From: a virus
Length of the DNA stretch: 64,000 bases
Virus record (IMG/VR): IMGVR_UViG_3300034107_000725
Coordinates: 64,001 to 128,000 of that record
Direction: 5' to 3' (one strand)
Shown here piece after piece: positions 14,343 to 50,998 of the stretch (positions are counted from its first letter, which is position 1; each line of letters starts with the position of its first letter). Under the pieces are notes generated by a model. The model was not told where the DNA came from and did no database searches. It saw only the letters and a list, made by a program, of their open reading frames with translations. A program made the translations under genes and the position numbers.

Positions 14343-15422
14343 ATGGATGAGCTGAATTTAAACCTAGAACAGCTTTTAGACGTAAGTCTGCACTGCGACT
14401 TTCCAGGAACGATTAATCTACTGGTTGAGAAGTGTGCAGCACCTGCCGTTGATCTTCGACAAGCCATTGCAAATCTTTATACCAAAACAGACTTAGGTAT
14501 TTATTGGAATCCCGCACAAGAAAAAGCAGCTATCTACGCGAGACCTGTGATCGATCCTGAAGAGTTTGACTGGGGATTGCAGGTACTGACAGAGAAACTG
14601 GGTTCAGACCACGTGCGGCGTGAACCACTCACAGGATATGACTTGCAGGACTGGTGGGTCAAGGTTGCCTACTCGCCAATACTTCGGCGACTGGGTGAGC
14701 TGGCTCAGTTCTTTCCCTCTAAAGATATTCCAGGTTTTGGCGGACGACCGATTGCCTCAACAGTGGCCAGCGGTTTGCTAGGTGCCGGATTGGGATACGG
14801 GGCAGGCTGGCTGGGAGAGAAAGTCATTCCTCATTGGGCCCAGTCAGAGGGAACGATTCGCAAATGGACGACGCTGTTGGGCGGGCTGGGCGGCACTGCA
14901 ATGGGTGCAACTCCCGGCTTACTCAATCTGCAAGATGGCCGCAGCTTCAACGATCCTACGCTGTGGTCAAGTCAGGCGGACGAACCTTGGCAGGGCAATA
15001 TGGTTGGCAGTCGTTACAAGGATGCAGTCGATCAATTTGTAACCAAACAGGCATTTGGATCTGTAGGCGGCCCGTCTTTTGATGAAGTACCACTCGTTCG
15101 CATGGACGAGCTTGGCCGCGTGCTGTGGGGTACAAACGCGTCACCACAGACAACCGCGATGACGATGGGGGCAATGTACGGGGCGAACCAGATGCCAGAT
15201 CCCACTGCAAGTCCAGGGCAGGTCACACCACACCAGGTGGGTATGTTCGGTCTGGCCATGGGAGCGGCGGGAGGCGGTATACGAGGTTACTTGACCGGGC
15301 GGGCCGTAGGCGTAGGCCTAGGCCTATTGACAGGCATGCCAACCGCGACTCAGAATACGTTAGGTCAAACCGGGTTAGCCTTGGGTGTTGTGAATGCCTT
15401 GGTTCCTCGGCTGTTTAACTAA
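14343..15422 (+). CDS. Putative internal head protein with Gly-rich hydrophobic segments
   Basis: GLLGAGLGYGAGWLG and glycine-zipper C-terminus; EKCA, VKVA, TKQA motifs. Confidence 0.6.
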   Translation: MDELNLNLEQLLDVSLHCDFPGTINLLVEKCAAPAVDLRQAIANLYTKTDLGIYWNPAQEKAAIYARPVIDPEEFDWGLQVLTEKLGSDHVRREPLTGYDLQDWWVKVAYSPILRRLGELAQFFPSKDIPGFGGRPIASTVASGLLGAGLGYGAGWLGEKVIPHWAQSEGTIRKWTTLLGGLGGTAMGATPGLLNLQDGRSFNDPTLWSSQADEPWQGNMVGSRYKDAVDQFVTKQAFGSVGGPSFDEVPLVRMDELGRVLWGTNASPQTTAMTMGAMYGANQMPDPTASPGQVTPHQVGMFGLAMGAAGGGIRGYLTGRAVGVGLGLLTGMPTATQNTLGQTGLALGVVNALVPRLFN

Positions 15423-18003: not shown

Positions 18004-21000
18004 ATGCAACCGCTCACGCCCAATCTGCTTGAGCCGGAATCCTCATCGCTGTTGACTCCGGCTGCATCTATCCAGCCGTTACCGCCTGCTCCCGATTATC
18101 GGGAGTTTGGTGATACGGTAAAAACGCGTTCACGTATTTATGACAACGTACTGAACGCGGCTAAGAACATACAGCCCGTGTCGAACGACCGCCACACACT
18201 TCGGTTGGCGGATGTGGATTACATGGATTCAGATCGGGTCAGCAAGCGGGATCAGAAGGCCGCTATTCTGAACGGCTTGACCCGCGGGCGAAGGCTACGT
18301 GGTACGTGGGAACTGGTGGACAACGCCAGTCAGCAGGTGCTTGATAGTAAGCGGTCTGTGCTTATGACCGTACCTCACCTCACCGAACGCGGTACGTTCA
18401 TTAACAATGGCACAGAGTACACATTAAAGAACCAACAACGCTTGCTCCCTGGCGTCTACACGCGGGAACGTGATAACGGTGAAATTGAATCACACGCAAA
18501 CGTCTTGCCGGGCAAGGGCGTGTCTCACCGTTATTTTCTAGACCCAGAAAAAGGGCAGTTCAAGATTCGCCTGGGACAAGGCACCGTCAGCCTGATGCCT
18601 TTGCTCAAGTCTATGGGTGCGACTTCAGAACAGATTAAAAATGCTTGGGGCAAAGATCTTTATGCCAGTAACTTCAACAGCGATGACGCTGGCGAACACA
18701 AGAAGCTCCGGGCCAAGTTTCTAAATGCTAAAGAGCTTCAAGGGGATGAGCAGGCACAGCGGGCAGCTCTTGTGCAAAAGTTTGCCAACATGGAGCTGGA
18801 CCCAGAAGTCACAAAGCGAACGCTGGGTAATCCACATGCAGGACTGACCCTGGACGCTGTGATGGATATTACCAAAAAGCTAATTCAGGTCAGTCGTCGG
18901 GAAGCCGAGCCGGATGATCGTGACGCGTTAACCTATCAGAGCTTCCTTGGCCCTGAAGATCTACTTGCAGAAAGAATTTCGCGAGATAAAGGTGGTTTAC
19001 GCCGTCAGCTTTTATGGCAAATGTCGGGGCAAGGCAACCTCCAAAAAATGCCATCTTCTGCCTTGCACAAGCAGCTTCAGGCTGCCATTATGGGTTCCGG
19101 GCTGGGTCAAGCGATCGAAGAAATTAATCCGGCAGAGCTGTACGACAAGTCAACAGCTGTGAGCCGCCTAGGCGAGGGCGGTATTCCTTCCACGGATGCT
19201 ATTCCTAAAGAATCGCGTAGCGTTCAGCCCAGTATGTTCGGATACGTGGACCCTGTGCGAACCCCAGAATCGGGCAAGGTAGGAGTGGACACCTACCTTG
19301 CTCGTGGGGCTCGCAAGGGTTCCGACGGCAAACTTTACGCTCAGTTTAACGACGTTAGAACCGGTGAAACCATTTACAAAACACCGCAAGCTGTTGCGGA
19401 TTTGACTTTGGGTTTTCCTGGAAGCATGCAGCAACTCGGGAAACGGGTAGCCGCTATGCGTAACGGAAAAATGGTCTACGTGCCAAAGCACGAGATAGAC
19501 TTAGAGTTACCAAGCATGGAAGAAGCGTTTAATCCGCTTTCCAACATGATACCTATGAAAAGCCAGGTCAAAGGTCAGCGACTGGTGATGGCGTCTCGAA
19601 TGACCACACAGGCGTTACCTATCGCAGGGGCCGAAGCTCCACTGGTTCAGTCGGCGATACCAGGCACAAACGGACAAAAGAGCTACGAAGAGCTTTATGC
19701 CGGTGCGATGGGTGCGTTACGTGCTCCGCAGGGCGGAACGGTGACCGGTGTAGACGATGACGGCATTCATGTGCGATACGAGGACGGTACTTCAGACACA
19801 CATGAGATGTATCAGAACTTCCCGTTTAACCGTAAAACTTTCATACATCAGACGCCAGTCGTAAGGCCTGGAGACCAGTTTGGTCCAGACCAGTTGCTGG
19901 CCCAGTCCAACTATACTGATAAGACAGGGGCAACGGCTTTAGGGCGTAACGCTCGTACTGCTTATGTCTCGTGGCAAGGCAAGAACTTTGAAGATGCCGT
20001 CGTAATTTCTGAAGGCTTTGCCCGGAAAATGGCTTCTGAGCACATGTATCAGAACAGTCTGGAAGTAGACGACAAGACTCAGCTGGGTAAGCATAATTAC
20101 ATTCAGAAGTTTCCTGGTAAGTTCGATAAGGCAACTTTGGCAAAAATGGATGATAGCGGCGTGATTAAGCCTGGAACGGTGGTACACTACGGCGATCCTC
20201 TCATTCTGGGAACTTCGCAGCGGGAAACCTCGTACAACAAAGTCCACAAAAAAGGACAGGCAGGACACACCGATGCAGCAATCATTTGGGATCATCACGA
20301 CGACGGGACCGTTACCGATGTGGTCATGGGCAAAACGGGACCGACTGTCGTTGTTAAAGCGACGTCAGCCATGCAAGTTGGCGACAAACTCTCTGGGCGG
20401 TACGGAGACAAAGGAGTCATTGCTGATGTCATCCCAGACCATCAAATGCCACATGATAGTGACAAACAACCCTTCGAAGTCCTGTTGAATCCACTTGGTG
20501 TCATCACCCGAACCAACCCGGCTCAGATGTCTGAGTTGTACCTGGGTAAACTAGCAGCCAAGCTGGGACGACCTATCAAGGTCCAAGACTTTGATTCAAG
20601 CAAAGACATGGGCGAATGGGTTTCACAAGAACTGGCCCGTGAAGGTTTGTCTGACTTGGAAGACATCAACGACCCGTCTAAAGATCAGAAGATCGGCGGT
20701 ATTGCTACGGGTCATCGGTTTTTTATGAAGCTGCACCACACGGCTGAGTCTAAGGGACAAAGCCGCGGTGGTGGAGCTTACACAGCGGATGATGCACCGG
20801 CTAAAGGTGGGTCAGAAGGCTCAAAGCGAATTGGGATGTTGGATACAAACGCCTTGTTGTCTCACGGAGCTACGGCAACGCTACAAGACGTGAGTGCAGT
20901 TCGTGGACAGAAGAATGACCAATACTGGATGCAGTTCATGTCCGGCTACAATCCAACAGCGTCCAAGGTACCGTTTGTGTATCAAAAGTTTGTCAATCAA

Positions 21001-22443
21001 CTCAAGTCTGCTGGTGTTAACGTCGTCAAGCAAGGCACACAGACAAACATCATGGCGTTGACGGATAAGGATGTGGATGAGCTGGCCGGTGATCGCGAAC
21101 TCCAAAACGCGGAAGGCGTAGACTGGAATAAGGGGCTCAAGGAAATTTCTGGCGGCTTGTTTGACAAGTCGAAGACCGGAGGTCACGGGGGCAATCGTTG
21201 GAGCTATATCAAGCTGCACGAGCCGTTGCCAAACCCGGTGATGGAAGAACCCATCCGGCGTATGCTAGGTTTGACACAGAAACAGTTTCAAGGCGTAATC
21301 TCAGGCACGGAACCGTTATCTAAGTACGGCACAGGTCCGCAGGCTTTACAAAAGGCCCTGTCCGGAATGAATGTTGATGCTGAGATTGAGAAAGCCCGTA
21401 ACGCTATTTCAGCGGGTCGGGCCTCAGACAGGGATGCGGCGGTGAGGAAGCTAGGATACCTGAAGAGTGCTAAAAAGCTGGGTCTCCATCCTGGCGATTA
21501 CATGCTTACAAAAGTGCCTGTTCTGCCTCCTATGTTTCGACCCGTCAGCATGATGTCAAACGATATGCCACTGATTAACGATGCTAACTACCTTTACAAA
21601 GAGTTATTTGAGGCAAATAACAACCTCAAAAGCATTCAGAGCGAATTAGGACATGAAGCATCCGGGCTGGAACGAATGGCGGCGTACAATGCCTTCAAAG
21701 CTGTCACGGGTTTAGGCGATCCAATTAGCCAGAAAAGTCGAGATAAGAACGTCAAAGGTGTGCTTCAGTCTGTGTTTGGTTCCAGCCCCAAGTTCAGTAC
21801 ACTACAACGCAAACTGATTTCCACCACTGTGGATAACGTCGGGCGGGCGGTGATCACCCCCAATCCGGATCTGGACATGGATTCGGTCGGCCTGCCCGAA
21901 GAGAAAGCCTTCAAGGCGTATGAGAAGTTCGTCACCCGGCGGCTGGTCCGTCAGGGTATGTCGATGAGAGTGGCTCGCGAACACATTGCAAACAAATCGA
22001 AGCTGGCACGCAATATTCTGCTTGAGGAGATGGATCATCGTCCGGTATACATCAGCCGGTCTCCTGTTCTTCACAAGTTTGGGATTTTGGCAATGAAGCC
22101 AAGACTAACCAAGGGTGATACACTTCAGGTTAGCCCTCTCATCGTTAAAGGCTTTAACGCTGACTTTGATGGCGATGCTATGAATTATCACGTACCGAGC
22201 ACAGAAAAGGCCCGACAAGAAGCTCTTGACCGACTTCTACCTAGCCGAAACTTGTTCAGTCTGTCAGACTTTAAATCCGTGATGCACGCTCCGGCAAACG
22301 AGTTTGTCGGCGGTTTGTACCACGCTACGAAATCCGTTAGCGATCGCCCTAAAAAGATCTTTCGATCGCTACAGGATGCTAAGCGGGCCTACGCACGGGG
22401 CGATATTTCTATCGACGATCGCGTGCAAATCCTAGAATCTTAA
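18004..22443 (+). CDS. rpoB: Multisubunit RNA polymerase beta subunit fused to the N-terminal half of beta'
   Basis: Beta motifs GTFINNGTE, DPVRTPESGKVG, NFEDAVVISE, GDKLSGRYGDKG, NPLGV, KRIGMLD; beta' motifs PVLPPMFRP, GRAVI, SRSPVLH and catalytic NADFDGD at 22156-22176. Confidence 0.95.
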   Translation: MQPLTPNLLEPESSSLLTPAASIQPLPPAPDYREFGDTVKTRSRIYDNVLNAAKNIQPVSNDRHTLRLADVDYMDSDRVSKRDQKAAILNGLTRGRRLRGTWELVDNASQQVLDSKRSVLMTVPHLTERGTFINNGTEYTLKNQQRLLPGVYTRERDNGEIESHANVLPGKGVSHRYFLDPEKGQFKIRLGQGTVSLMPLLKSMGATSEQIKNAWGKDLYASNFNSDDAGEHKKLRAKFLNAKELQGDEQAQRAALVQKFANMELDPEVTKRTLGNPHAGLTLDAVMDITKKLIQVSRREAEPDDRDALTYQSFLGPEDLLAERISRDKGGLRRQLLWQMSGQGNLQKMPSSALHKQLQAAIMGSGLGQAIEEINPAELYDKSTAVSRLGEGGIPSTDAIPKESRSVQPSMFGYVDPVRTPESGKVGVDTYLARGARKGSDGKLYAQFNDVRTGETIYKTPQAVADLTLGFPGSMQQLGKRVAAMRNGKMVYVPKHEIDLELPSMEEAFNPLSNMIPMKSQVKGQRLVMASRMTTQALPIAGAEAPLVQSAIPGTNGQKSYEELYAGAMGALRAPQGGTVTGVDDDGIHVRYEDGTSDTHEMYQNFPFNRKTFIHQTPVVRPGDQFGPDQLLAQSNYTDKTGATALGRNARTAYVSWQGKNFEDAVVISEGFARKMASEHMYQNSLEVDDKTQLGKHNYIQKFPGKFDKATLAKMDDSGVIKPGTVVHYGDPLILGTSQRETSYNKVHKKGQAGHTDAAIIWDHHDDGTVTDVVMGKTGPTVVVKATSAMQVGDKLSGRYGDKGVIADVIPDHQMPHDSDKQPFEVLLNPLGVITRTNPAQMSELYLGKLAAKLGRPIKVQDFDSSKDMGEWVSQELAREGLSDLEDINDPSKDQKIGGIATGHRFFMKLHHTAESKGQSRGGGAYTADDAPAKGGSEGSKRIGMLDTNALLSHGATATLQDVSAVRGQKNDQYWMQFMSGYNPTASKVPFVYQKFVNQLKSAGVNVVKQGTQTNIMALTDKDVDELAGDRELQNAEGVDWNKGLKEISGGLFDKSKTGGHGGNRWSYIKLHEPLPNPVMEEPIRRMLGLTQKQFQGVISGTEPLSKYGTGPQALQKALSGMNVDAEIEKARNAISAGRASDRDAAVRKLGYLKSAKKLGLHPGDYMLTKVPVLPPMFRPVSMMSNDMPLINDANYLYKELFEANNNLKSIQSELGHEASGLERMAAYNAFKAVTGLGDPISQKSRDKNVKGVLQSVFGSSPKFSTLQRKLISTTVDNVGRAVITPNPDLDMDSVGLPEEKAFKAYEKFVTRRLVRQGMSMRVAREHIANKSKLARNILLEEMDHRPVYISRSPVLHKFGILAMKPRLTKGDTLQVSPLIVKGFNADFDGDAMNYHVPSTEKARQEALDRLLPSRNLFSLSDFKSVMHAPANEFVGGLYHATKSVSDRPKKIFRSLQDAKRAYARGDISIDDRVQILES

Positions 22444-24152: not shown

Positions 24153-27100
24153 ATGCTGAATACGACTGTCGGCCAACTGTTGGTAAACGAATCACTGCCT
24201 GAAGACTTGCGGGACTATAACCGAGTCCTGGACAAGAAAGGTATGGGTGCGTTGTTACAGCAGGTGGCTCGACAGTATCCAGAAAAGTACCGTGAAGTGT
24301 CGTTTCAGCTGAGTCAGGTTGGGCAGAGGTCAGCTCAAGACCAGGGGGGTATGTCGTTCGGCATGCGTCACCTGAAACGAAGTAAGATCGCCAACGAAAC
24401 TCGGAAACGGATTCAGGGGCAGCTAGACAACATCTTGTCTGATGACTCGCTCACAGATCAGCAACGCAACGATCTGATTGTGAAAACAGTTGGACGTGAG
24501 AGCGAACCGCAGCAGAAGGCAGTGCTGGAAGAAGCCATTCAAGCCAAGAATCCGTTAGCAATGCAAGTGCTTTCAGGTAGCCGCGGTAAGCCTATGAATC
24601 TTGCCAGCTTGCTGGCAGCAGATATGCTGTACTCGGACCACAGGGATGAGGTTATTCCAATTCCGGTGCTTCGCAGTTACAGCGAAGGCTTGTCCCCGGA
24701 AGAATACTGGGCTGGAACTTATGGTGCTCGTCGCGGGATCATCGCAACTAAGTTTGCCACTCAGGAAGCGGGATTTCTGAGCAAACAGTTAAATCAAGCA
24801 GGTCACCGGCTGGTCGTAATGGGTGAAGAGGGTGACGAAGATCCGGAAGCACCTACTCGGGGTTTGGTCGTTGATACTGACGACATGGACAACGAGGGTT
24901 CGCTTTTGGCTCGGGACGTAGGACCGTACAAGCGAAACACCCCACTTACCCCCAAGATTCTCAAACAACTACAGCGACTTGGCAAAAACCGGATTTTAGT
25001 CAGGTCGCCGATGGTTGGTGGTTCTCCTGAGGGTGGTGTTTATGCTCGAGACGTTGGTATCCGTGAACACGGTACCTTGGCAGGGTTAGGCGAGCAGGTC
25101 GGACTTCAGGCAGCTCAGGCTTTGTCTGAACCGATTAGCCAAGGGCAGCTTTCGGCAAAGCACTCTGGCGGCGTTGCCGGGCAGGAAAAGGCGGTTGGTG
25201 GATTCCAATACATCAATCAGCTGATTCAAACGCCCAAGAAGATGCAGGGTGGAGCTGCTCACTCTACATTGGACGGTACGGTGCAGCGAGTAGAACCTGC
25301 TGCTGCCGGTGGGTTCAACGTAACGATTGACGGCAAGCCGCACTATGTAGGTGAGGGCTTTGGTGTCAAAGTTAAAAAAGGGGATAACGTCGAAGCCGGG
25401 GATGTGCTTAGCGACGGTATTCCCAATCCAGCGGTCATCACTCAGTACAAAGGTGTTGGTGAGGGTCGCCGTTACTTTGTCAACGAATTCCGCAAAGCTA
25501 TGTCAGCTAGCGGTATGCAGGGACACCGCCGCAACATTGAGTTGCTGGCACGCGGATTAATCAATCACGTTAAGCTCACGGAAGAGACTGACGATCATGC
25601 TCCGGACGATATCGTCCCGTATTCTACGTTGGAGCATACATACAAGCCACGGGAAGGCCATGAGCGTCTAACGCCCAAAAAAGCGTTGGGCCAGTATCTG
25701 GAACGTCCGGTGTTGCACTACACCATTGGCACTAAGATTCGCCCGTCGATGCTTAGAGACTTCGATGATTTCGGAGTCCAGGCAATCCCGGTGCATAAGA
25801 ATCCGCCACCGTTCGAGCCACATATGGTACGAGGTATGTACCAAATGCAGCACGATCCGGATTGGATGACCCAGATGTACGGTTCCGGACTCAAAAAGAG
25901 TCTGCTGGAATCCACAGCACGTGGAGCAACCAGCGAGGAACGGGGTACCAGCTTCATCCCCAGCTTGGCGTCAGGCACTGATTTTGGCGAAGTCCCAGAT
26001 CGTGCAGTGATTCAGCCTAAGCCTGCATATTCATTGCCTAAAGTATCCATTCCTGACTTGGAGCCTGAAAATTCAGGATCCACGTTCTTTGGAGGCCGAT
26101 ACAAAGTAGGCATGCAAAAAAGGGCGGTAGAAGCGACCCCACCCAAAGTCGAGGCTCCGGCCTCCACATCTATGTCGGCTCCTACCGCCCCTACTCCCTC
26201 CCCGTCGAATGCCGCAGAGTTGGGTAGCAATAATATTATGTCCCCGGCTACAACTGTCCAGCCCAAACTGGATACAGTGACTCAGCCGATTCAACCGCCA
26301 GCGGATATACCACAGGCAAGCCAGACTCCTAGAGCAAGCCAGACTCCTCCAGCCAGTCAACCGCCGCCAGCCAGTACACCAGCACAGGTTCGGGCAGATG
26401 TGATGCAGGCTTCAAGAACCGCAACTCCGCCTCCGATTCAAGAACCTTTGCCGCAGATTAAAAGACCGTCAACTAAGATGCCAGAGCTATCTACTGGAAC
26501 CGCATCCACTTCTCGGCTAACCAGTTCTCGGCTAGGCTCACAAACAGCAGGCATTCCATGGTGGCGGGCAACAGCAAAGCCGACAGACACGACATGGAAT
26601 AAAACAGAAAATACCGAATTCCATTCTCAGCCTAACTCTGTGTTAGGTGCGACACCGTCTGTGGCCAACCTGGCTGCGAGTCGTTCCTACGCACCAGAGC
26701 CTCCAGCTGCACCTGTAAAGGGTTATGCAGATTATGCTCAAGACGCCTGGGACGCGTTTAAAAACCCTGTAACAACGATTAGTAATCAACTCTACGGTAC
26801 GCCGGAACCTACTGCGGGTAACTCGTTTTCCGATGATGGAAATCTGTTGGCTCGCTCTGGGGTAAATATGGGTCTTAAACAAATGATGGGCCGCTCTGCC
26901 CCGGCTGCGATTACTGCAGCAGCTGAAGCTGCAGTTCCATTGTCTCGGGTGGGTCGATTGGCAGCCGGAGCTCGAGCTTTGTTGCCGGGGTTTTTACCTG
27001 GGGCCAGACTGGCAGCCGGAGGTGCCGCAAGTGCTGCGGGTGGTCTATCTTTGGCACCGGCAGCGATAGGCTTTGCTGCGGTTAACGCAGGCACTGAGCT

Positions 27101-27335
27101 GCTTGACGCAGGCGGTCTTTTGCCAGAATGGGCGGGTGGAGATGGTTGGGGTACTATGGGCTGGGATCAAACTGGCTTCGAAAACGACTTTAAAGATCGG
27201 AGTATACCGGGGGCTGCCTTACATACCGTTATGAACCCACTTAAAAGCATATGGGCTGGCGGTACACGACTAGGTGATGCAGGTTATAGGGGAACGAGCT
27301 GGCTGTACGACAAGTTTAGAGGCGGGGCAAAATAG
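24153..27335 (+). CDS. rpoC: RNA polymerase beta' C-terminal half fused to a ~400-aa non-polymerase extension
   Basis: NTTVGQLL, SGSRGK, bridge helix GARRGIIATKFATQEAGFLSKQL, trigger loop QAAQALSEPISQGQLSAKHSGG, HRRNIELLAR; the extension starts after MQKRA (~26126). Confidence 0.9.
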   Translation: MLNTTVGQLLVNESLPEDLRDYNRVLDKKGMGALLQQVARQYPEKYREVSFQLSQVGQRSAQDQGGMSFGMRHLKRSKIANETRKRIQGQLDNILSDDSLTDQQRNDLIVKTVGRESEPQQKAVLEEAIQAKNPLAMQVLSGSRGKPMNLASLLAADMLYSDHRDEVIPIPVLRSYSEGLSPEEYWAGTYGARRGIIATKFATQEAGFLSKQLNQAGHRLVVMGEEGDEDPEAPTRGLVVDTDDMDNEGSLLARDVGPYKRNTPLTPKILKQLQRLGKNRILVRSPMVGGSPEGGVYARDVGIREHGTLAGLGEQVGLQAAQALSEPISQGQLSAKHSGGVAGQEKAVGGFQYINQLIQTPKKMQGGAAHSTLDGTVQRVEPAAAGGFNVTIDGKPHYVGEGFGVKVKKGDNVEAGDVLSDGIPNPAVITQYKGVGEGRRYFVNEFRKAMSASGMQGHRRNIELLARGLINHVKLTEETDDHAPDDIVPYSTLEHTYKPREGHERLTPKKALGQYLERPVLHYTIGTKIRPSMLRDFDDFGVQAIPVHKNPPPFEPHMVRGMYQMQHDPDWMTQMYGSGLKKSLLESTARGATSEERGTSFIPSLASGTDFGEVPDRAVIQPKPAYSLPKVSIPDLEPENSGSTFFGGRYKVGMQKRAVEATPPKVEAPASTSMSAPTAPTPSPSNAAELGSNNIMSPATTVQPKLDTVTQPIQPPADIPQASQTPRASQTPPASQPPPASTPAQVRADVMQASRTATPPPIQEPLPQIKRPSTKMPELSTGTASTSRLTSSRLGSQTAGIPWWRATAKPTDTTWNKTENTEFHSQPNSVLGATPSVANLAASRSYAPEPPAAPVKGYADYAQDAWDAFKNPVTTISNQLYGTPEPTAGNSFSDDGNLLARSGVNMGLKQMMGRSAPAAITAAAEAAVPLSRVGRLAAGARALLPGFLPGARLAAGGAASAAGGLSLAPAAIGFAAVNAGTELLDAGGLLPEWAGGDGWGTMGWDQTGFENDFKDRSIPGAALHTVMNPLKSIWAGGTRLGDAGYRGTSWLYDKFRGGAK

Positions 27336-27416
27336 TGTTTGGGTTGCGATGTTAGCCCACGTCGGGCTAAACTGAGTTATCCATCTATCTCTTTTTGTAA
27401 AATCCAGGTGATCAGG

Positions 27417-27641
27417 ATGTTCAACGGAATAATGCTTGGCGGTATCAGCGAGAAGTATGCGGGTGCTTACCTCTTGCCTCCAGCCAAACGGAAGAAGAAA
27501 AAGCCACAACCCGATGAAGTTGATCCAGAAGTGCTGGATAAAGTGGCATCTGCCGTTGTGCGTAATCAACAGGCTATCATGCAACAACAACTGGCGGCAG
27601 GCGACCTGGGCGGCGGCTGGAATCCATACGACCAAGTCTAA
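27417..27641 (+). CDS. Small hypothetical (KxA-type) protein
   Basis: EKYA, DKVA; ATG 27417 preferred over 27339. Confidence 0.5.
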   Translation: MFNGIMLGGISEKYAGAYLLPPAKRKKKKPQPDEVDPEVLDKVASAVVRNQQAIMQQQLAAGDLGGGWNPYDQV

Positions 27642-27691
27642 GCCAACATCACTTCTCTGGAACTGACGAGCTGTTGCTCACGGAAGGGACC

Positions 27692-30199
27692 ATGCAAACA
27701 CAACTGAATAAGACAGCCGCCCTCGGCGGCAGCGGCGGCGAAACCGAATTTGAACAGGCTTTTTCTAGCCTGGCCTATGCCTATCTACGGGATAAAGCCC
27801 CACGGTTGCTAGATTTCATGGTCGGTTTTCAACTAGTCGACCGCAATGAAGATAACACCAAAGCGATGGGTATCTTCGGATTTCAAGTTGGCAAGCAGTG
27901 GCTATATGCCCCAGTGTTCTTCTTAAACGGCGATCTCAAAGGTCACGAGTTGCTCTACATGAAGAACAACGACTCCTTTGTGCCGCTGAAGGAAAACTGG
28001 ATTAACTACATTATGAGCCGCAAGCCCCACATCTTGGGCGAGCAATCTGCCTCAAAGTTGCGAGAGCTTGGTGGCGTTTATCCGGATATCCGGACGCTTT
28101 CAATCCCACCTTCAATTGGTGGTGGCAAGCGTGCCAGTGATAACAGCTGGCTTCAAGGCGTGATGCCGATGCTGGCTGCTTTCAAAACCAAAGCGGCTAG
28201 CTCACTCTATCGTGGAGCAGGGAACCGCAAGCTCAATCAAGCTGCTGTAGTTGCCGATCCGTTCGGTGCCGCTTTGGCAAAGCAGGCTTCAATTCTGGAT
28301 TTTAACAACGTCATGCCACAGAGTCTGGAACTGATCAAGATGGCTCACGCTATCTCTGAACGGTACCCGACAATCAAACTGGCGATGCAGAAGTTCTACG
28401 GTGTAGACTGCTTCTCACGCTGGAGCAAAGACCTGCGTAACAACCTGGAGAAGGAAGCCAGCAACATTCTGCCCGTGCAGATTGCGGCCAAACCTTATAT
28501 GCCGGGCAATTTGTTGATCCCAACAGAACGACCAGCCGGACCAATCGATCACGTCAAGCAGGGCAAACTCAATCTGGATGCTCCAGAATACGTGTTTGAA
28601 CGTGGTGGATTTATTGTCGATACGCTTGATGTCAGATTCCAGGTTGAACGGGAATCTGCCGGTATTACAGACAGTCGTGCCGACGACGAAGTATCGAAGG
28701 CTTACAACACTCAAGTTGACGTGCGGATGACCAATCCAACCGAAACCAACTTGTACCGTGTGCTGGAACGTCCAGGCAAGTTCAGCAAGATGCTGGTTGT
28801 GATGCACGGCAGCAGCAACCGTGGACGAGAACCATTTGCCACGTTGGTACGACTGGAAGACAACGGCGACGGTGGTGATAAGGCCTGGCTCAACAGCCAT
28901 GCCACCAACATCTTTGCCGATCAGACCGCGGAACGCGATGAGTGGCGGGAATGGTTTGAAAGCCTGCCAGGCTCGGAATCGTTGCAAGACGGCGGTGAAT
29001 ACATCGCAGTTTCCGAGGATGGCTCGGGTACTGTGCCGTTCCATGTGCAGTCTAACTACGGCGACGGACGTCACCGTGTGGACTTCCGCACTCACGTCAA
29101 CTTCGACGAAGCTCGGCCCAGCACGATGCCTCGTTTGCAGAAGATCACCGATCCGTTTACGGAGGAAGGTTATCACATGCCGAGCACGTACGGTGCCATG
29201 CTGTACACCGATAAAGAGGGCAAGAAAGGTACACGGCTGCGAGCAATTGCCGGTGAGCTTCGCGTGCCTGACTCTTTCAAGTTCCTTAAGCTATCGGAAC
29301 CGCAAAAGCCCAGATCTGGCGAATTGATGCCTTGCTCCAATTACAACAGCCGCAGCGACATGCCGCCGATTCAGCTTGGTAAGATCGACGACATCCAGCT
29401 CTTCTTCTACGAAAAGACGGCTGGGTTGCAGTTGTTAAACAACAGCACAGACGTCTACATTGACTCGGTGCTGGGTTCAGAGCGGGTCAGTCTTAAAGAA
29501 GCCGCGTGGCATCTGGTAAGCGTGCATGGTCTTCGCGAGAAGGCAGCTCGTGAGCTGCTGGAACAGTCAGAACGTAAGGGCAAAACCAGTTACCGGATCG
29601 AGTATGCTCCGGGTTACGGCAATCAAAAGCAGGCTGGACCAAACGACAGCGTGCTGGCTGGCGGCCCAGATGCCCCAATCTTTGACGACTTTGCTGAAGA
29701 GCGAAGTGTTGAAAACTACGGGCCTCGTACTTCTGCTCCAACTCAGTACGGCGGTGAAGCTGCTTACCGTTTGAACCACTTGAGTGCAGATCAAACTGAC
29801 CCAGGTGTATGGAACCCATGGCAGAACTACGAAGCAGAAGACTTCCAGAAGAATGTACAGAAAGCTCAACAGGCTGGAGCACAGGGACAGAAGGAAGTCT
29901 TTGATACTTCGATGATCTCCGGTATGCTCAAGTCCGTTCGGCAGGATTCGCTGGTTGAACGTCACCTGGCTCCGCTGGTTGAATCTTTAGACGCCTTAGG
30001 CCGCCTGTTGATGAACTTCTACTGGCACGGCGAAGAGTTTGAAGATCGCTATGGTAAAAGCGATATGCCTGAGCTGGAAGATAGCCTTCGAAATTCCTTC
30101 GAGGCCTTGGGTGATGTTACGCTCTTCCTGAAAGAGAAAACTGTCGAATCGCCGTTTGATAGCGGTGATGTCAATCTCGAAGAAACTTCAAGGAACTAA
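27692..30199 (+). CDS. Large putative head/core protein
   Basis: NKTAA, GKRAS, AKQAS, EKEAS, EKTAG, QKQAG divide the protein; position in the head cluster; no recognisable enzyme motif. Confidence 0.6.
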   Translation: MQTQLNKTAALGGSGGETEFEQAFSSLAYAYLRDKAPRLLDFMVGFQLVDRNEDNTKAMGIFGFQVGKQWLYAPVFFLNGDLKGHELLYMKNNDSFVPLKENWINYIMSRKPHILGEQSASKLRELGGVYPDIRTLSIPPSIGGGKRASDNSWLQGVMPMLAAFKTKAASSLYRGAGNRKLNQAAVVADPFGAALAKQASILDFNNVMPQSLELIKMAHAISERYPTIKLAMQKFYGVDCFSRWSKDLRNNLEKEASNILPVQIAAKPYMPGNLLIPTERPAGPIDHVKQGKLNLDAPEYVFERGGFIVDTLDVRFQVERESAGITDSRADDEVSKAYNTQVDVRMTNPTETNLYRVLERPGKFSKMLVVMHGSSNRGREPFATLVRLEDNGDGGDKAWLNSHATNIFADQTAERDEWREWFESLPGSESLQDGGEYIAVSEDGSGTVPFHVQSNYGDGRHRVDFRTHVNFDEARPSTMPRLQKITDPFTEEGYHMPSTYGAMLYTDKEGKKGTRLRAIAGELRVPDSFKFLKLSEPQKPRSGELMPCSNYNSRSDMPPIQLGKIDDIQLFFYEKTAGLQLLNNSTDVYIDSVLGSERVSLKEAAWHLVSVHGLREKAARELLEQSERKGKTSYRIEYAPGYGNQKQAGPNDSVLAGGPDAPIFDDFAEERSVENYGPRTSAPTQYGGEAAYRLNHLSADQTDPGVWNPWQNYEAEDFQKNVQKAQQAGAQGQKEVFDTSMISGMLKSVRQDSLVERHLAPLVESLDALGRLLMNFYWHGEEFEDRYGKSDMPELEDSLRNSFEALGDVTLFLKEKTVESPFDSGDVNLEETSRN

Positions 30200-30866: not shown

Positions 30867-31877
30867 TTGAAGGTCTACAGGGACATAAGACTCGCTGATC
30901 CATTTCTTCGTCCGTACTGGCGTCATGAACGCGTAGTACGGATGTTAGGTAGCGTGCCTCCAGCACGGTGTCGGCGATATGACGATATCTGGATTCAAGA
31001 GTACAAGAAGTTCTTATTTGCATGGCGACGCGGTGTAGAGCATCGCGAACGCCTGCTTTATGAGAACCCGGGCTTGTACTATGCTTACAACCTGTATGAC
31101 CGCATGCATATTGAGCCAGACATGGCTCTCATGATTGAAGCTCGCCTGTTAGCGGGAAGCACTCCGGAAATGATTGCAAACGAGTGCAAGACCATTCCGG
31201 AAACAATCGAGTGGTACGAACGTCTGTTTTTCAACGTATTGGACTTTCTACCTCATCACGATTGGATTCTTAAAAACGTACTCCTACCCGCGTCTGATCG
31301 TTTTGTCGACCCTTCGATTGACGCAGTCACGAGCCTGAGAAATCCCACGGAAATCGTGCGACCATACCTGGACATGACACTGAAATTTTTCGCTTACTTT
31401 GGCGGACCGCTCGTTTGCGATATCATGATAAGTGGATTTCGACGTAACAACCAGGTTCAAAATCCAGAAGATCTTACGGACTACTTCAACGATCATTTTG
31501 CCAGTCAGCTACAACGCCGCAGTGCTCAAGCTGCCGGACAGTTTGAAATCAACAAGTACAACATCATGGAGTTGTTCACAACTCACACGAGACTTATTGA
31601 AGTGCAAAGATCCGGCAAGAATCCCGAAAATCGACACAACGATTTTGAAATGAACATCAACGAAATGTTGACCGCAATTCCTTGGACTGCCGGTAAGGCC
31701 AGCAAGACTCTGTATGAAGGTTCTATGATTGGACTGTATGATGACAGTGCGATCGAACTGGATTCGGAAGAAACAATCTTAACTGGTGTAGGTATGGAAT
31801 TGGAATCAGCCAGAGAAGCCAAAGCCACTCGAGTTTACAGCCAGGGGGAGCCACAACGCGATGCAAAGTCTAAGTAA
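30867..31877 (+). CDS. Hypothetical protein with a central HTH-like segment
   Basis: IEARLLAGSTPEMIANECKTIPETIEWYERLFFNV. Confidence 0.6.
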   Translation: MKVYRDIRLADPFLRPYWRHERVVRMLGSVPPARCRRYDDIWIQEYKKFLFAWRRGVEHRERLLYENPGLYYAYNLYDRMHIEPDMALMIEARLLAGSTPEMIANECKTIPETIEWYERLFFNVLDFLPHHDWILKNVLLPASDRFVDPSIDAVTSLRNPTEIVRPYLDMTLKFFAYFGGPLVCDIMISGFRRNNQVQNPEDLTDYFNDHFASQLQRRSAQAAGQFEINKYNIMELFTTHTRLIEVQRSGKNPENRHNDFEMNINEMLTAIPWTAGKASKTLYEGSMIGLYDDSAIELDSEETILTGVGMELESAREAKATRVYSQGEPQRDAKSK

Positions 31878-33246
31878 ATCGGACGAGCAGAAACTACTGG
31901 ACGGAGTCAAACAGGCTGTAGCCTTGGTTGACGATAAGGGTCTGACACCAGATGCCGCTTTGCAAAAAGTAGCAGAAGACCTGCAATATTCCCCCGGTTT
32001 TCTTAAGGCCGCGTGTAACGCGTTCAACACTGGTCGACAGCTGGCTCAGTGGAATGAAAACGATTCTGTGTTGGACAAGCTGGCAAGTTTCCCGCTAGCC
32101 GACTACGACAACATCCACGATAAGATGTGGGGCAAAGCCCAAGAAAAAGTAGCTGCTGCTTCATTTACGCAGCCTAAGTTTCTAACTTACGACGAACAGT
32201 TTCGCCAGGAACTGTTGAATCGTGATCTGAGTGCCTTCACCAAGTCAGCTTCCGCTGAGCCTGAGTTAAGTCCGATGGCTGCCGACGAGCAGGCTGACAA
32301 TCGCACCAAGCGGGCTTACGCTAGTTACGATTACCTTAATCGACTAGCCGAAGAAGCTCGTAGAGAAAAGACTGCAGCTGCGTCTCAGCTCGAGAAGACA
32401 GTCGGGCAACTGGAAGATTACTTCCGCAAATTTGCACACGATCGCCTGTCACTGGCTCACGTGCAACACGCTGCTGCAACATACTACGGCACAGCAGGCA
32501 AAGCTCTGATGCACCACATCGCAGACCAGTTGCCCAACGAAAAACGTGCTTCGGATTACACTTCGTCCTGGAGTGGCTTTCAATTGGCAGTGGATCGCAC
32601 ACAAGAGCCTTACACTTTGATTGAGGCATCTATCAAGCGAGCTGCTGCGTATCAAATAGCCATAGATCAACTTAACGAAGCTCAAGAGAAGCTGGCTGAG
32701 GCAAAAAAGGCAGTTGCCCCTTTTTCTCAGCCCCGGTTCGAAAGCTCGAATGGGAGCCCAGTTACCCTGACTCCCTCCTTGCTTCCTGACGCCGGGGAAA
32801 AAGAAGCCAATACCGGGGTTAGTGCAGCGTTAGCTGGTGGGTTAGGTATGGGTACTGCCAGAGAGCTGGGTGAGTACGCCATACATGGTGCGGACAGCAG
32901 GATGCAAGGATTGCTGAACGAGCTAGACGATCCAAATCACCTTAACGAACTACGGAAGATCCGAGCTCAAACGGTACTTACTCAGTTGATGAGCGATCCG
33001 GAGAGCCCTATCAGTAGTTACGATCCGGAAGAAGTACTTTCTGCTTACAACGATATGATTAAGCTCTCGCCTAGGCTGGCTGATCAACCTTCGGCGGTTG
33101 GCCCACTGTTGAACAAGCGGTTATCGGGAAATATTGAACCGTTTGAACTCGGTGAGACTTTGAAACTGGAACAAGGGCTCAAGCAAACACAATCCACCCC
33201 GTCTTATATGGACTTGACGAAAAATGAAAACAGTATCGTTGGCTGA
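31861..33246 (+). CDS. Putative internal head protein (helical, multiple KxA)
   Basis: EKVAA, TKSAS, TKRA, EKTAA, EKRAS, IKRAA, EKEA. Confidence 0.6.
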   Translation: MQSLSKSDEQKLLDGVKQAVALVDDKGLTPDAALQKVAEDLQYSPGFLKAACNAFNTGRQLAQWNENDSVLDKLASFPLADYDNIHDKMWGKAQEKVAAASFTQPKFLTYDEQFRQELLNRDLSAFTKSASAEPELSPMAADEQADNRTKRAYASYDYLNRLAEEARREKTAAASQLEKTVGQLEDYFRKFAHDRLSLAHVQHAAATYYGTAGKALMHHIADQLPNEKRASDYTSSWSGFQLAVDRTQEPYTLIEASIKRAAAYQIAIDQLNEAQEKLAEAKKAVAPFSQPRFESSNGSPVTLTPSLLPDAGEKEANTGVSAALAGGLGMGTARELGEYAIHGADSRMQGLLNELDDPNHLNELRKIRAQTVLTQLMSDPESPISSYDPEEVLSAYNDMIKLSPRLADQPSAVGPLLNKRLSGNIEPFELGETLKLEQGLKQTQSTPSYMDLTKNENSIVG

Positions 33247-34396
33247 CATTTCGTACGAGCAAGGCCTACAACTATTGGCACTGCGAAAGCAGGCCATGGA
33301 CGCTGGGCAAGTTCGTCGCATGACTCCGGAAGCATTGGCAAACACTTTTCCGCTTCGCAGCATCGGTCAAGCCACGATCGAAAAGCTAGCTGAAGGTGGA
33401 TTTTTGGATAGTCTAAAATCCGGAATTAAGAATGTTGGTGATAAGTACCAAGGCATAGATCCATCAGTTCGCAAAGCCTTACTGTCTACTGTGGCTGGAA
33501 CTGGATTAGGAGCTGCAGCCGGAGTCGGTTCAGCATACCGTAGGGGCGATAAAAACTACGGACGGAACGCTCTGCGTGGTGGTATTGCCGGGGCTGCTGT
33601 TGGTGGTGGTCTTGGTCTTGCCTTAAATCCGCAGCTGGCAAATAAGATACAGGAAAAGACTAAACCGGTAGTGGACAATCTGGATGCTAAAACGCAGCCA
33701 GGAGATCCCGCAGCTGCTAATTTACAAAGCAAGGCCACAAGCATTAATCCAGAGCTTGCAGGTCTGGCGACCGGGCTTGGTTCTGGTGGAGCCGCTATCG
33801 AAGGAATTCGTCGCGTGCATAATTATAAATCATACGATCCACAGGCGATGGCCAATCATCTTTGGGAAAAAGCTCAGACGGGTGCGGTTGGAGCTACTGA
33901 CGCTAAAGGCAAGATGAAACCTTCTAAGTTTTCGATGGAAGGTTTATCCCGTATGCTGGGTTATTCTCAGGCAGAAACCGTGGGTCGGGGTGGAAAGCTG
34001 GGTAAGGCCGAACTGTTACGCGAGCTCATCCAGAAGGGGCATGTGAATTCAGAAAGGCTTGCAACTTTACTAGAAAAAGCCGACCACGGTGCTAACGTCT
34101 TTGGAAAGATGAAATCCGGACCTACGTTTTTTAATTCAAAAACACCGGACACTAAATCGATGCTATCGTCCGTCGTGGGTAAAGAAGGATTACAAGAAGC
34201 GATGGAGGCGGCTGAACGCACTGGGTTTAGATCTGCTAAAGGTTCACTACGTCCTAAAAAGGTCGGGATTGCGGGTCTTTTGGCTACGTTGGGCTTAGGT
34301 GGCGTGGGCTACGGCATAAAGAATTATCGAGCCGATGCCGCTGTACGAAACCAAGCACTTGAAGCGGTCAAAAATCAAATCACAGATAAACCCTAA
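33224..34396 (+). CDS. Putative internal head protein with glycine-zipper hydrophobic helices
   Basis: VAGTGLGAAAGVG, GGIAGAAVGGGLGLAL, IAGLLATLGLGGVGYG; N-terminal segment ends IEKLA. Confidence 0.6.
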   Translation: MKTVSLADISYEQGLQLLALRKQAMDAGQVRRMTPEALANTFPLRSIGQATIEKLAEGGFLDSLKSGIKNVGDKYQGIDPSVRKALLSTVAGTGLGAAAGVGSAYRRGDKNYGRNALRGGIAGAAVGGGLGLALNPQLANKIQEKTKPVVDNLDAKTQPGDPAAANLQSKATSINPELAGLATGLGSGGAAIEGIRRVHNYKSYDPQAMANHLWEKAQTGAVGATDAKGKMKPSKFSMEGLSRMLGYSQAETVGRGGKLGKAELLRELIQKGHVNSERLATLLEKADHGANVFGKMKSGPTFFNSKTPDTKSMLSSVVGKEGLQEAMEAAERTGFRSAKGSLRPKKVGIAGLLATLGLGGVGYGIKNYRADAAVRNQALEAVKNQITDKP

Positions 34397-34408: not shown

Positions 34409-35893
34409 ATGGCTTTGATCAAATTTGTCTCGCCTTCGGGCTGGGATTTTGAGCAACGGATTGTCTCACCGATCAAGATGAGCAGTCGAGGTTTGATTGG
34501 TGAGGATCGCCGGGAATTCCTGAAGCGAGCCAGCCATGCGTTTTTGCCCCAACTGGACAACGTCAAGTTTGCCAAGGACGAAGTCCCGGTTCACTTGATT
34601 GCTCTTGGAGCCAGCGAAGCCTACGGTCCCAACCGTAACGGTGACGGCTTTAAGGAAGCGACCTGTCGAGAACACCACCACACGTTTACCAAGTTTGCCA
34701 AGTTCTTCCGTAACCATAAGAACAAAGCCGAGCGTGGTGATCCGTACTACGGCTACGTCAAGGCATCAGCTTACAACGAAGACATGCGTCGCGTTGAGTT
34801 GCTGTGTGCCCTAAATGCCGAAAAGTCAGCCGCAAATCGCAACGGTGGATTTGTTGCAGACACTGAGTTGGAAAAGATTGCACGTGGCGAAGACATGGCT
34901 GTCAGTATGGCCTGTCGTGTGCCACATGACGTCTGTTCCTTCTGCAAGCACGCTGCAAAAAATCGATCTGAATACTGCACTCGCGAGAAATGTGCTGCCG
35001 GTGGTTGTCAAAGTAATCTGACACGATTAGTGAAGGTCGGTAGTGATCTTCACCACCTGCACGTTGACAATCCTAATCCAACGTGGTTCGATATTAGCCG
35101 TGTCTTTCGTCCAGCTGACCGTATTGCTTACGGGGCTAAAGCGGACTATCTAACCAAAGCTGCTGCGGATTCTGGAATTTTTGAGTTGCAAGATTACATC
35201 AAAATGGCGGAGAATTCTACCGCACCGCTTGATGTGATTCTGTACCAATCCGGTCACCACGGTTTCTGGTCTGAGAAGTTCGCAGCTCAAGTAAAACTAG
35301 GATATGGACTAGCTGCACTTGAAAAATACGAAACAGCAAGAGATGCTAATACATATCGAGCCCACGCAACTGCCGATTTTCCAATCGAAAAGATGGCAGC
35401 GTTCGGCTCCTCCCAATGCGATACTCAGTTGGCTGCGATGGCCGATCGAAAAATCATCTTGAGTTTGAAGGATTACGCACGATTGGCAGGCCGAGAAGAA
35501 CATGTTAAAAGTGCTGCTGCTTTCTTACCGGGGATCTATTCTCATATGACCACCGATGAGTCGTTACCCCTCAGGGTCGAAAGCGGCATGTGCTCGTTTA
35601 TCGAAAAGACAGCCAACGAAAGCTCTCGTATGCTCGCGGCTACACTTCATGCAGAGTACTCTCTGCAGAAGGAAGCAGTTGAGGATCGGGGCTTTCTGAG
35701 TTGTATCCGGGGGCAGCCTGCTCCCGTGATTGTCCCGTATGAAAAGTCAGCCACTTGTGACGAACACGGTGAAAGGCTTGCCAAGGATTACGCTATGTAC
35801 AAATTGGCAGCCCTCTGGCGTGTCGCCGCAGTGGATACAGACTTTCCATTGACAGTGAGTTTGAGTCTCCGTCAAAATCGAGTTTTTCACTAG
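34409..35893 (+). CDS. Prohead (maturation) serine protease
   Basis: NGDGF, FRNH (His), YNEDMRRVEL, VSMACRVPHDVCSFC (Ser plus Zn-like Cys); lies upstream of scaffold and capsid genes. Confidence 0.8.
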   Translation: MALIKFVSPSGWDFEQRIVSPIKMSSRGLIGEDRREFLKRASHAFLPQLDNVKFAKDEVPVHLIALGASEAYGPNRNGDGFKEATCREHHHTFTKFAKFFRNHKNKAERGDPYYGYVKASAYNEDMRRVELLCALNAEKSAANRNGGFVADTELEKIARGEDMAVSMACRVPHDVCSFCKHAAKNRSEYCTREKCAAGGCQSNLTRLVKVGSDLHHLHVDNPNPTWFDISRVFRPADRIAYGAKADYLTKAAADSGIFELQDYIKMAENSTAPLDVILYQSGHHGFWSEKFAAQVKLGYGLAALEKYETARDANTYRAHATADFPIEKMAAFGSSQCDTQLAAMADRKIILSLKDYARLAGREEHVKSAAAFLPGIYSHMTTDESLPLRVESGMCSFIEKTANESSRMLAATLHAEYSLQKEAVEDRGFLSCIRGQPAPVIVPYEKSATCDEHGERLAKDYAMYKLAALWRVAAVDTDFPLTVSLSLRQNRVFH

Positions 35894-35934: not shown

Positions 35935-37272
35935 ATGAGCAATTCTGCAGTACAGTCGATGCGATCCATCGACCGATTTTTGCAGGAAGTCGCCGCAACC
36001 GAAAAGCGAGCTGCTGAAGCCAACAGTGAGCGAGGCAGTATCGGCGGAGCGACGACCCACCCTGTGAAAGATGTGGACGATCAAACGGAAGACGCCCAAG
36101 AAGGTTCTCGTTCAGCGGAAAACACCGCTGATGTGAAAGCCGATCAAGGCCCAGCCGCTGTTGATAACACACCTGAAAATGTTGCGGACAAAAAGGCAGC
36201 GGCTAAGCGAGCTTCGGCCCGCAAGCAAGCTGTCGACGGCAAGTCTGAAGACGGTGCGATTAACCCGCCCGGCACAGCTGAAGACGACCAACTTCAAATC
36301 GGCACACGTAAATCAACCACAGGTCAAGATCCTGCCGTAGAAACCTCTTCAGCTAAGGCTGAGAAGGAAGACGCAGCGGGTGGCCGCCTGGGCAATACAG
36401 CTCACCCTGCTCGTACCAACAATGGTGAGCTGGATGGTTACAAGTATGCCGAAATGCCGCTGGATCAGCTCGCTAAAGTTGCTTCCGACATGGGCAACAA
36501 CTTGTTGGCTCAACTGGCTAACTTGCAGAAACAAGCTGCAGGACTGGTCGGCGGTCAAAAAAAGTTGGACATGAACGGCAACGGTAAGCTCGAAGGTTCA
36601 GACTTTGCCTCGATGCGAAATCACTCGCAAGAAGAAGGCGAAGAGGATGAAGACGAGAAGGAAGCCGCAGATCTGGCCGGTCAAGCCGGTTGGGAACTTG
36701 CAGGTCTTCTGAGCGGTAACTTCGATAAGAAGGCTGCCGATTCCCTGGTGCGTAGCACTTTGGAAGAAATCATTAAGACTGCTTCCGATGATGCCGACAA
36801 GGTTGCTTCCTTCCTTGTTAGCTACGAGGAAGAACTCGTAAAAAAAGCTGGAGGTGAAATGCCCGCTGGCATTGATCCCGCAGCCATGGGCATGGGCGGT
36901 GCTGGTCCTGATGAAATGGCCGGTATGGACCCTGCAGCTATGGGTGGTGATCCTGAAGCTATGGGCGGTGGTGACGCTGGTGGGGATCAGGTCGCTCAGT
37001 TGGCCGCCCTGCTGGAACAGCTTGGCATTTCACCTGAAGAACTTGAAGCAGCTATGGCTGCCGAAGGCGGTCCCGGTGAAGCTGGTGGTGCCCCTATGGG
37101 CGGCGAACCTATGGGTGAGCCTGCTCCAGAACAGGCAAGTGAAGCTCCTGGCATGGAAGTTGAGGCTTCTGCAAAGCGACATGTCGCTAAGCAAGCTACT
37201 GCCAAAAAGGGTGCTGCTAACAACTTGGTGCGGGATTACATTCAGGAAATCCTGGAACGGTCTCGTCATTAA
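35935..37272 (+). CDS. Prohead scaffold/core protein
   Basis: Acidic, low-complexity, many KxA sites, between the protease and MCP. Confidence 0.7.
   Translation: MSNSAVQSMRSIDRFLQEVAATEKRAAEANSERGSIGGATTHPVKDVDDQTEDAQEGSRSAENTADVKADQGPAAVDNTPENVADKKAAAKRASARKQAVDGKSEDGAINPPGTAEDDQLQIGTRKSTTGQDPAVETSSAKAEKEDAAGGRLGNTAHPARTNNGELDGYKYAEMPLDQLAKVASDMGNNLLAQLANLQKQAAGLVGGQKKLDMNGNGKLEGSDFASMRNHSQEEGEEDEDEKEAADLAGQAGWELAGLLSGNFDKKAADSLVRSTLEEIIKTASDDADKVASFLVSYEEELVKKAGGEMPAGIDPAAMGMGGAGPDEMAGMDPAAMGGDPEAMGGGDAGGDQVAQLAALLEQLGISPEELEAAMAAEGGPGEAGGAPMGGEPMGEPAPEQASEAPGMEVEASAKRHVAKQATAKKGAANNLVRDYIQEILERSRH

Positions 37273-41905: not shown

Positions 41906-50997
<9,092 letters not shown>

Positions 50998-50998
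<1 letters not shown>

Follow-up and report, generated by a model that had tools for sequence, protein, structure and literature searches.

We describe an open reading frame (ORF) in which one subunit of a phage RNA polymerase (RNAP) is continuous with a long C-terminal tail. The ORF lies at positions 24153–27335 (plus strand) of the window, the 64,000-nucleotide stretch analyzed here, which comprises bases 64001–128000 of the 194-kb IMG/VR record IMGVR_UViG_3300034107_000725 (record completeness 94%). The record belongs to an uncultivated lake phage, and the stretch is present in at least 16 lake-water metagenome runs (~100% of sampled words). The product of 1060 amino acids (aa) is the C-terminal half of beta' (beta'C) plus the tail. 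Its partner (18004–22443, plus strand; 1479 aa) is beta fused to the N-terminal half of beta' (beta'N), with matches to PF00562, PF00623, PF04565 and PF04997. The RNAP consists of two subunits, and these two ORFs are the sole RNAP set in the 194-kb genome.

The beta' core occupies aa 1–613 (24153–25991, plus strand). It matches the Pfam domain RNA_pol_Rpb1_5 (PF04998) over aa 179–360 (72.4 bits against a cut-off of 28.5; E 5.5e-20) and phrog_25354 (at positions 615–1104). It also shares 24.5% identity with gp216 of Salmonella phage Arash over aa 5–612. Homology to beta' stops at aa 612–613 in tblastn and BLASTP comparisons with the tail-less beta'C of Arash (606 aa) and of Vibrio phage D181; the sequence SFIPSLASGTDFG begins at aa 600. 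A short P-rich spacer leads from the core to the junction FFGGRYKVG-MQ-KRA (aa 645–658; 26085–26126, plus strand), which is made up of FFGGRYKVG (26085–26111) and MQKRA (aa 654–658; 26112–26126), the latter with K-x-A at 26118–26126. The tail is 407 aa long and has three parts: this junction, a 187-aa linker and a helical, G/A/W-rich module of ~215 aa. The linker (aa 659–845; 26127–26687, plus strand) is of low complexity and presumably disordered, and P, T, S, Q and A make up 64% of it, versus 30% of the core. Its length and sequence vary freely among relatives and are near-identical in the closest strains. The module, which we call PEWAGG (aa 846–1060; 26688–27332, plus strand), holds a region where identity to two close relatives, L011 and L014, drops. 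It includes a G/A-rich hydrophobic stretch starting LAAGGAAS (aa 953–977; 27009–27083, plus strand), which holds the most hydrophobic 19-aa windows of the protein, and directly after it the conserved core motif NAGTELLDAGGLLPEWAGGDGWGTMGWDQTGF (aa 978–1009; 27084–27179, plus strand).

A preliminary description of this DNA had placed the end of beta' homology before MQKRA and had read the following ~400 aa as a Pro/Thr/Ser/Gln linker and a Gly/Ala-rich hydrophobic region; both points are borne out. It had also likened the tail to neighboring head proteins. That likeness holds for composition, with glycine-zipper-like segments in the ORFs starting at 14343 and 33224, but not for homology, and no tail paralogue was found in the 194-kb genome by BLASTP or hidden Markov model (HMM) search. 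The two ORFs themselves (14343–15422 and 33224–34396, in the virion block) have several such hydrophobic segments, for example GMFGLAMGAAGGGIRGYLTGRAVGVGLG, and are candidate membrane-active ejection proteins.

The ORF is a real fusion. The fused gene was called in close relatives, on at least seven independent contigs (ENA/Logan). In two runs, which may include the sample behind the window's own assembly, Logan contigs cross 25800–27700 with 0 differences and no indels. In a third run, three overlapping Logan pieces cover the same interval, likewise with no differences. The concern that the junction might be misassembled was thus answered by contigs of separate runs, and there is no stop or frameshift near 26.1 kb. 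Translation from an internal start at ATG 26112 was considered and rejected, as there is no convincing Shine-Dalgarno sequence, in contrast to the relative L020. A run of six A residues lies at the junction (26115–26120, within CAAAAAAGGG at 26115–26135). It is also found in L011 and is absent from L004. Slippage on it would yield a tail-less beta'C, since the +1 frame stops five codons on; we treat this as coincidence, given how short the run is and that L004 lacks it. A metatranscriptome contig (X17) was likewise set aside as evidence of expression, as it covers only 26109–26368.

The tail module is separable, dispensable and replaceable. This follows from a comparison set of seven IMG/VR loci and several ENA/Logan contigs, in which the tail occurs in fused, split, exchanged and missing forms. 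A fused tail with the module is found in the window, L011, L014, L004, L006–L008, L022, P0011 and P0013. Most of the fused-tail relatives also have a coiled-coil extension of ~215 aa; it is not in the window, L011 or L014, and no copy exists anywhere in the window phage's own genome. Two relatives carry the split form (L020:6034-8765 and L021:1-1478). There, beta'C is 656 aa long and ends in ...FFGGKYKLGGSRT*, and the tail is a separate ORF of 254 aa (MKKHADFAAM...) that overlaps it by ATGA and has a GGGAG Shine-Dalgarno sequence. The break falls exactly at the junction residues, and K-H-A is retained at the start of the separate protein. A search for the tail as a separate ORF in homologous phages was thereby successful. 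Together with the K-x-A/G kept in most tail-bearing relatives, the split supports the tail as a separable unit with the K-x-A junction as its boundary.

Other relatives lack the module or have something else in its place. L005 comes from a complete genome of 204.8 kb, which has terminal repeats and encodes a 77% identical beta'C; the module occurs nowhere in it, and is absent too from the Arash and D181 genomes. In L009 (L009:7801-10095), acylphosphatase-like, P-loop kinase (AAA_18/AAA_33) and DUF5661 domains take the module's place, and the tail of L010 is another sequence, unrelated to the module. The L009 tail suggests that the C terminus of beta'C serves accessory domains generally as a docking point. 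In a beta'C tree, the tail-less and split forms fall inside the tail-bearing ingroup. The window, L004, L005, L020 and L022 are poorly resolved in this tree, and the order of loss and fission is therefore a parsimony guess.

Within the fused-tail relatives, the module also varies between closely similar strains. The window is 93 to 99% identical in nucleotide sequence to L011 and L014 over 15 kb, except at a hypervariable cassette (~26690–27260). There, nucleotide identity falls to 40 to 50% and protein identity to ~41%, with the core motif retained. L011 and L014 are ~99% identical to each other, but only 63 to 65% identical over the cassette's first half. Its left edge is where the contigs of run X16 break. 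As read from these alignments, the pattern indicates that alleles are replaced through recombination between conserved flanks. A diversity-generating retroelement was considered and rejected: there is no reverse transcriptase (no PF00078 match) and no template repeat or second copy of the region. A further patch of divergence, of smaller size, lies at 32811–33105, in the C terminus of ORF 31861–33246 (60% identity to L011 and 97% to L014).

The module belongs to a small, previously undescribed protein family that is shared with a few bacterial proteins whose sequences look exported. A module profile run against 1.84 billion (1.84e9) protein cluster representatives found 15 proteins. The family consensus is a G/A-rich hydrophobic helix, then ...NAxxExLDAxGLxPxWAGGxGxGxxGW...NP[LIV][KR]S; in our alignment (A2), the Glu is almost invariant, and G, G-W and P are invariant; the core motif holds this Glu and the invariant G, G and W. 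Besides the beta'C-linked forms, the matches include P0015, P0017, P0018 and P0020 from bacterial contexts. In three of these (P0015, P0018 and P0020), signal-like sequences were read by eye at the N terminus. P0018 and P0020 are paralogues that share a contig of an Oligoflexales metagenome-assembled genome. Proteins with a signal-like N terminus and the module at the C terminus (L023:8001-9218, L070, L071 and L072) occur in this genome and in one other of the order; only 2 of 95 Oligoflexales genomes have the module. A DNA pattern scan of genome contigs returned 45 loci, two of them true after HMM filtering and both on one Oligoflexales contig. Neither tail nor module matched any Pfam, NCBIfam, PHROG or PDB family. 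A sequence-profile search of the tail against PDB gave non-significant matches only (uS5, E 0.11; a tape-measure protein, E 0.19), and an ESM Atlas feature search of the tail was uninformative (scores of at most 0.88, low recognition).

The setting of the gene points to the virion. The beta'C gene is embedded in the head (structural) module, and synteny with the head module of Arash continues downstream of it: the ORFs at 27674, 34409 and 38422 correspond to the structural proteins gp218 and gp222 and to the major capsid protein gp226. Arash and D181 are also the nearest named phages (25 to 30% identity). In Arash, gp206 (beta plus beta'N) and gp216 (beta'C) are among the most abundant proteins of virion preparations, with 3516 and 1210 spectra (PMC10585845). 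Because of this abundance, a virion-borne polymerase is likely for the clade, and by analogy with its Arash homologues the RNAP of the window phage is probably packaged in the virion. That the genome has a single RNAP set points the same way. Two neighboring ORFs deserve mention. One of 74 aa (27417–27641, ending ...GGGWNPYDQV) immediately follows beta'C in every close relative; these include the tail-less L005, so that it is independent of the tail. The other, of 3030 aa (41906–50998), has unusually high GC skew (~0.22) and a G/A/T-rich repetitive stretch. Its place corresponds to that of Arash gp229, a protein of 2548 aa that ranks among the most abundant in the Arash virion.

The junction carries a tripeptide that recurs in head proteins. 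The pattern FFGG[RKS][YF][KT][VP]Gxx-K-x-[AG] is conserved in L004, L006, L007, L008, L011 and L014, and K-x-A/G is found at or near the junction in the window, L004, L006–L008, L011, L014, L020, P0011 and P0013. Among head proteins, 14 of the 29 Lys of ORF 31861, 17 of 32 in ORF 34409 and 16 of 28 in ORF 35935 are part of a K-x-A, and ORFs 27674 and 14343 are also enriched. Enrichment was significant (p 1e-3 to 8e-8) in these five window ORFs and in three Arash head proteins (gp220, gp223 and gp225; L019). In these proteins of both phages (the window ORFs being 27674–30199, 31861–33246, 34409–35893, 35935–37272 and 14343–15422), the motif often reads E-K-x-A-A/S and is 3- to 4-fold above expectation. 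The capsid protein N termini of the window phage and Arash also have GL(E/V)K(Q/E)A in common. Because K-x-A is enriched in the head proteins of both phages, a K-x-A-specific head maturation protease, or a clade-wide processing or recognition code, is plausible from sequence. Cleavage of the tail at K-R-A by such a protease is likewise a plausible candidate event, and is made stronger by the natural gene split at the junction in L020 and L021. ORF 34409, the homologue of Arash gp222, matched no protease family in Pfam or PHROGs. For the earlier proposal of a polyprotein cut at K-R-A by the prohead protease, K-x-A/G is kept in most tail-bearing relatives, and the residues flanking the site are atypical.

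The module also holds the most hydrophobic and most interface-seeking segments of the protein. We took a mean Kyte-Doolittle value of at least 1.6 over 19 aa as the criterion for a transmembrane segment. The stretch just before the core motif is the hydrophobic maximum in most module homologues, where it scores 0.98 to 1.75, borderline for a membrane helix. Both of the most interface-seeking (Wimley-White) windows of the whole protein lie in the module, at the core motif and at aa 1034. Membrane activity of the module is plausible, and the signal-like bacterial homologues together with these hydrophobic and interfacial maxima may hint at action at an envelope.

We tentatively favor, at somewhat short of an even chance, a reading in which beta'C is the carrier of a separable accessory cargo, a host-interface module that rides with the RNAP into the capsid and the host. 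The module would sit on beta'C behind its flexible linker of ~190 aa as an autonomous accessory unit. Covalent fusion, or translational coupling in some phages, would give ~1:1 co-production, letting the module travel with the polymerase, first into the prohead and then out at infection. It may then act at the envelope of the host or right at the start of infection, where contact with a variable component of the host or a competitor would drive evolution by cassette replacement. The head maturation protease could possibly separate beta'C from the module at the K-x-A junction. The fusion, the limits of the module, its separability, dispensability and hypervariability and the spread of its family are observed; what we infer in this reading are virion packaging in the window phage, cleavage, membrane or envelope activity, and a host-interface function. 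The preliminary description had proposed that RNAP and a pilot protein are loaded 1:1, or that the tail is a tether. The separable unit it implied stands, but the module is dispensable, hypervariable and replaceable; we favor accessory host-interface cargo for this reason, an essential pilot, a tether or a packaging signal being a poorer fit.

Several observations weigh against accessory cargo. The module has no recognizable enzymatic or toxin domain (Pfam and NCBIfam) and no fold match, with 0 hits in a Foldseek search of its model against PDB. Its AlphaFold2 models are all-helical and of low confidence (pLDDT 43.5 with 7 sequences and 58.6 with 16). There is no candidate immunity gene, the 74-aa downstream ORF being shared with L005. 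The hydrophobic stretch of the window copy (aa 953–977) reaches a Kyte-Doolittle maximum of 1.53, below the transmembrane criterion, and the type-B modules (L006–L008) are less hydrophobic. L009 and L022 have no K-x-A at the aligned spot, and beta'C as a whole is not enriched in the motif (5 of 50 Lys against 5.3 expected). The junction is flanked by Q at −1 and V at +3, where E at −1 and A or S at +3 are commonest at the enriched sites. RNAP packaging in the window phage is probable by analogy with Arash, whose virion preparation had 116 proteins and may be contaminated (PMC10585845). Lastly, hypervariability could stem from contact with a phage partner instead of a host component.

The alternative that survives best, although we consider it unlikely, makes the tail a cytoplasmic regulatory or localization appendage of the RNAP, unrelated to the virion, which might recruit the enzyme to a membrane, a compartment or a host factor. 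The phage's only RNAP carries the tail and must make middle and late transcripts too, and the variable tails of L009 and L010 could be different regulators. However, the gene lies within the head module, the bacterial homologues appear exported, and hypervariability among near-identical genomes would be unusual for an internal regulatory domain.

We are more doubtful of an uncleaved membrane tether, in which the module would sit in the inner membrane at the entry site and the linker would anchor the ejected polymerase, so that transcription reels in the genome. The long flexible linker, the exported look of the bacterial homologues and the probably virion-borne RNAP are all consistent with it, as are the hydrophobic and Trp-rich interfacial segments of the tail, which are the extremes of the protein. 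Yet L005, a complete close relative, manages without the module, and the separate polypeptide in L020 and L021 means that covalent tethering is not required. Hydrophobicity in the window is under the usual transmembrane threshold (1.53 against 1.6), and the membrane tether of the preliminary description is weakly supported as a result. Just as doubtful, in our estimate, is a more specific proposal. Here, the PEWAGG module would be a new class of ejected, membrane-inserting pilot that exits the capsid before the RNAP or joined to it and fixes the RNAP at the inner membrane, so that transcription pulls the genome in. It would be hypervariable as a target of superinfection exclusion or envelope defense, and K-x-A would be cut by a prohead protease of novel specificity. 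If true, the ORF would be a C-terminal polyprotein for the 1:1 loading of pilot and RNAP.

It is improbable that the tail is a C-terminal capsid-targeting or scaffolding-type propeptide that brings beta'C into the prohead, is cut at K-R-A, and is then degraded or expelled, as in T4 or phiKZ. The K-x-A conserved at the junction and the K-x-A-rich, putatively scaffold-like proteins encoded nearby would suit such a role. But a targeting signal should be conserved and indispensable, and this tail is hypervariable and can be exchanged; L005, Arash and D181 have none, even though their beta'C would also have to be packaged. Nor does the tail appear built for degradation, with 0 internal K-x-A among its 13 Lys (2.1 expected). 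In SPN3US, the identified propeptides are all N-terminal save the protease's own (PMC10052503). Finally, there is next to no chance that the ORF is an artefact, whether an error of assembly or sequencing that joined two genes or a pseudogene extension in decay: a split form is known in L020 and L021, but the fused frame recurs without indels across many independent contigs and at least 16 runs, spans divergent relatives (L004, L006–L008, L022, P0011 and P0013), and has a core motif under purifying selection at ~20 to 50% identity.

Ejected polymerases of phiKZ-like phages, the terminal domains of the N4 virion RNAP and MuF-type proteins are the closest analogies to this system, and none is homologous. 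The prohead protease motif of phiKZ-like phages is S/A/G-x-E. These phages (phiKZ, SPN3US and Goslar) carry a multisubunit beta/beta'-type RNAP in the head and eject it (PMC10052503, PMC13742148). Their propeptides are N-terminal (PMC10052503), whereas beta'C has a long, hypervariable and dispensable appendage at its C terminus, with K-x-A as the candidate motif. A head-carried multisubunit RNAP, here probable by analogy with Arash, is what the systems share, and in phiKZ-like phages a maturation protease trims head proteins at a short sequence motif; there, however, the enzyme has five subunits and a second, non-virion RNAP exists, in contrast to the two subunits and single set here. The N4 virion RNAP, gp50, is a single-subunit T7-like enzyme with non-catalytic terminal domains for encapsidation and injection, which are essential and conserved. 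It resembles beta'C in being a polymerase with an extra terminal region, but has no sequence relation to the window RNAP. MuF/SPP1 gp7-type head proteins have polymorphic C-terminal toxin domains that are thought to be delivered with the DNA. They share with beta'C a variable, swappable C-terminal module on a conserved carrier, as in the cassette (40 to 50% nucleotide identity) and the L009 and L010 tails. Here, however, the carrier is an RNAP subunit, and the module has no recognizable toxin fold or immunity gene. Arash (gp206/gp216) and D181 have the same RNAP architecture and head-module synteny, and Arash has the same K-x-A enrichment in head proteins. Their beta'C, however, ends 7 to 10 aa past the DFG motif (7 aa in Arash gp216) and has no tail. 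Glycine-zipper or Trp-rich membrane-active segments occur in phage ejection and tape-measure proteins and in viral fusion peptides. The module, a G/A-rich weakly hydrophobic helix followed by a W/G-rich interfacial segment, is like them in composition only, its best tape-measure hit in PDB being the non-significant one above (E 0.19).

The capsid targeting and tail delivery of multisubunit virion RNAPs are poorly understood. In this clade, one polymerase appendage occurs naturally in fused, split, swapped and deleted form, and these versions together define where the module is bounded and point to a candidate site of processing. The hypervariable cassette in near-identical lake phages is, moreover, a probable host-interface determinant other than the tail fibre.

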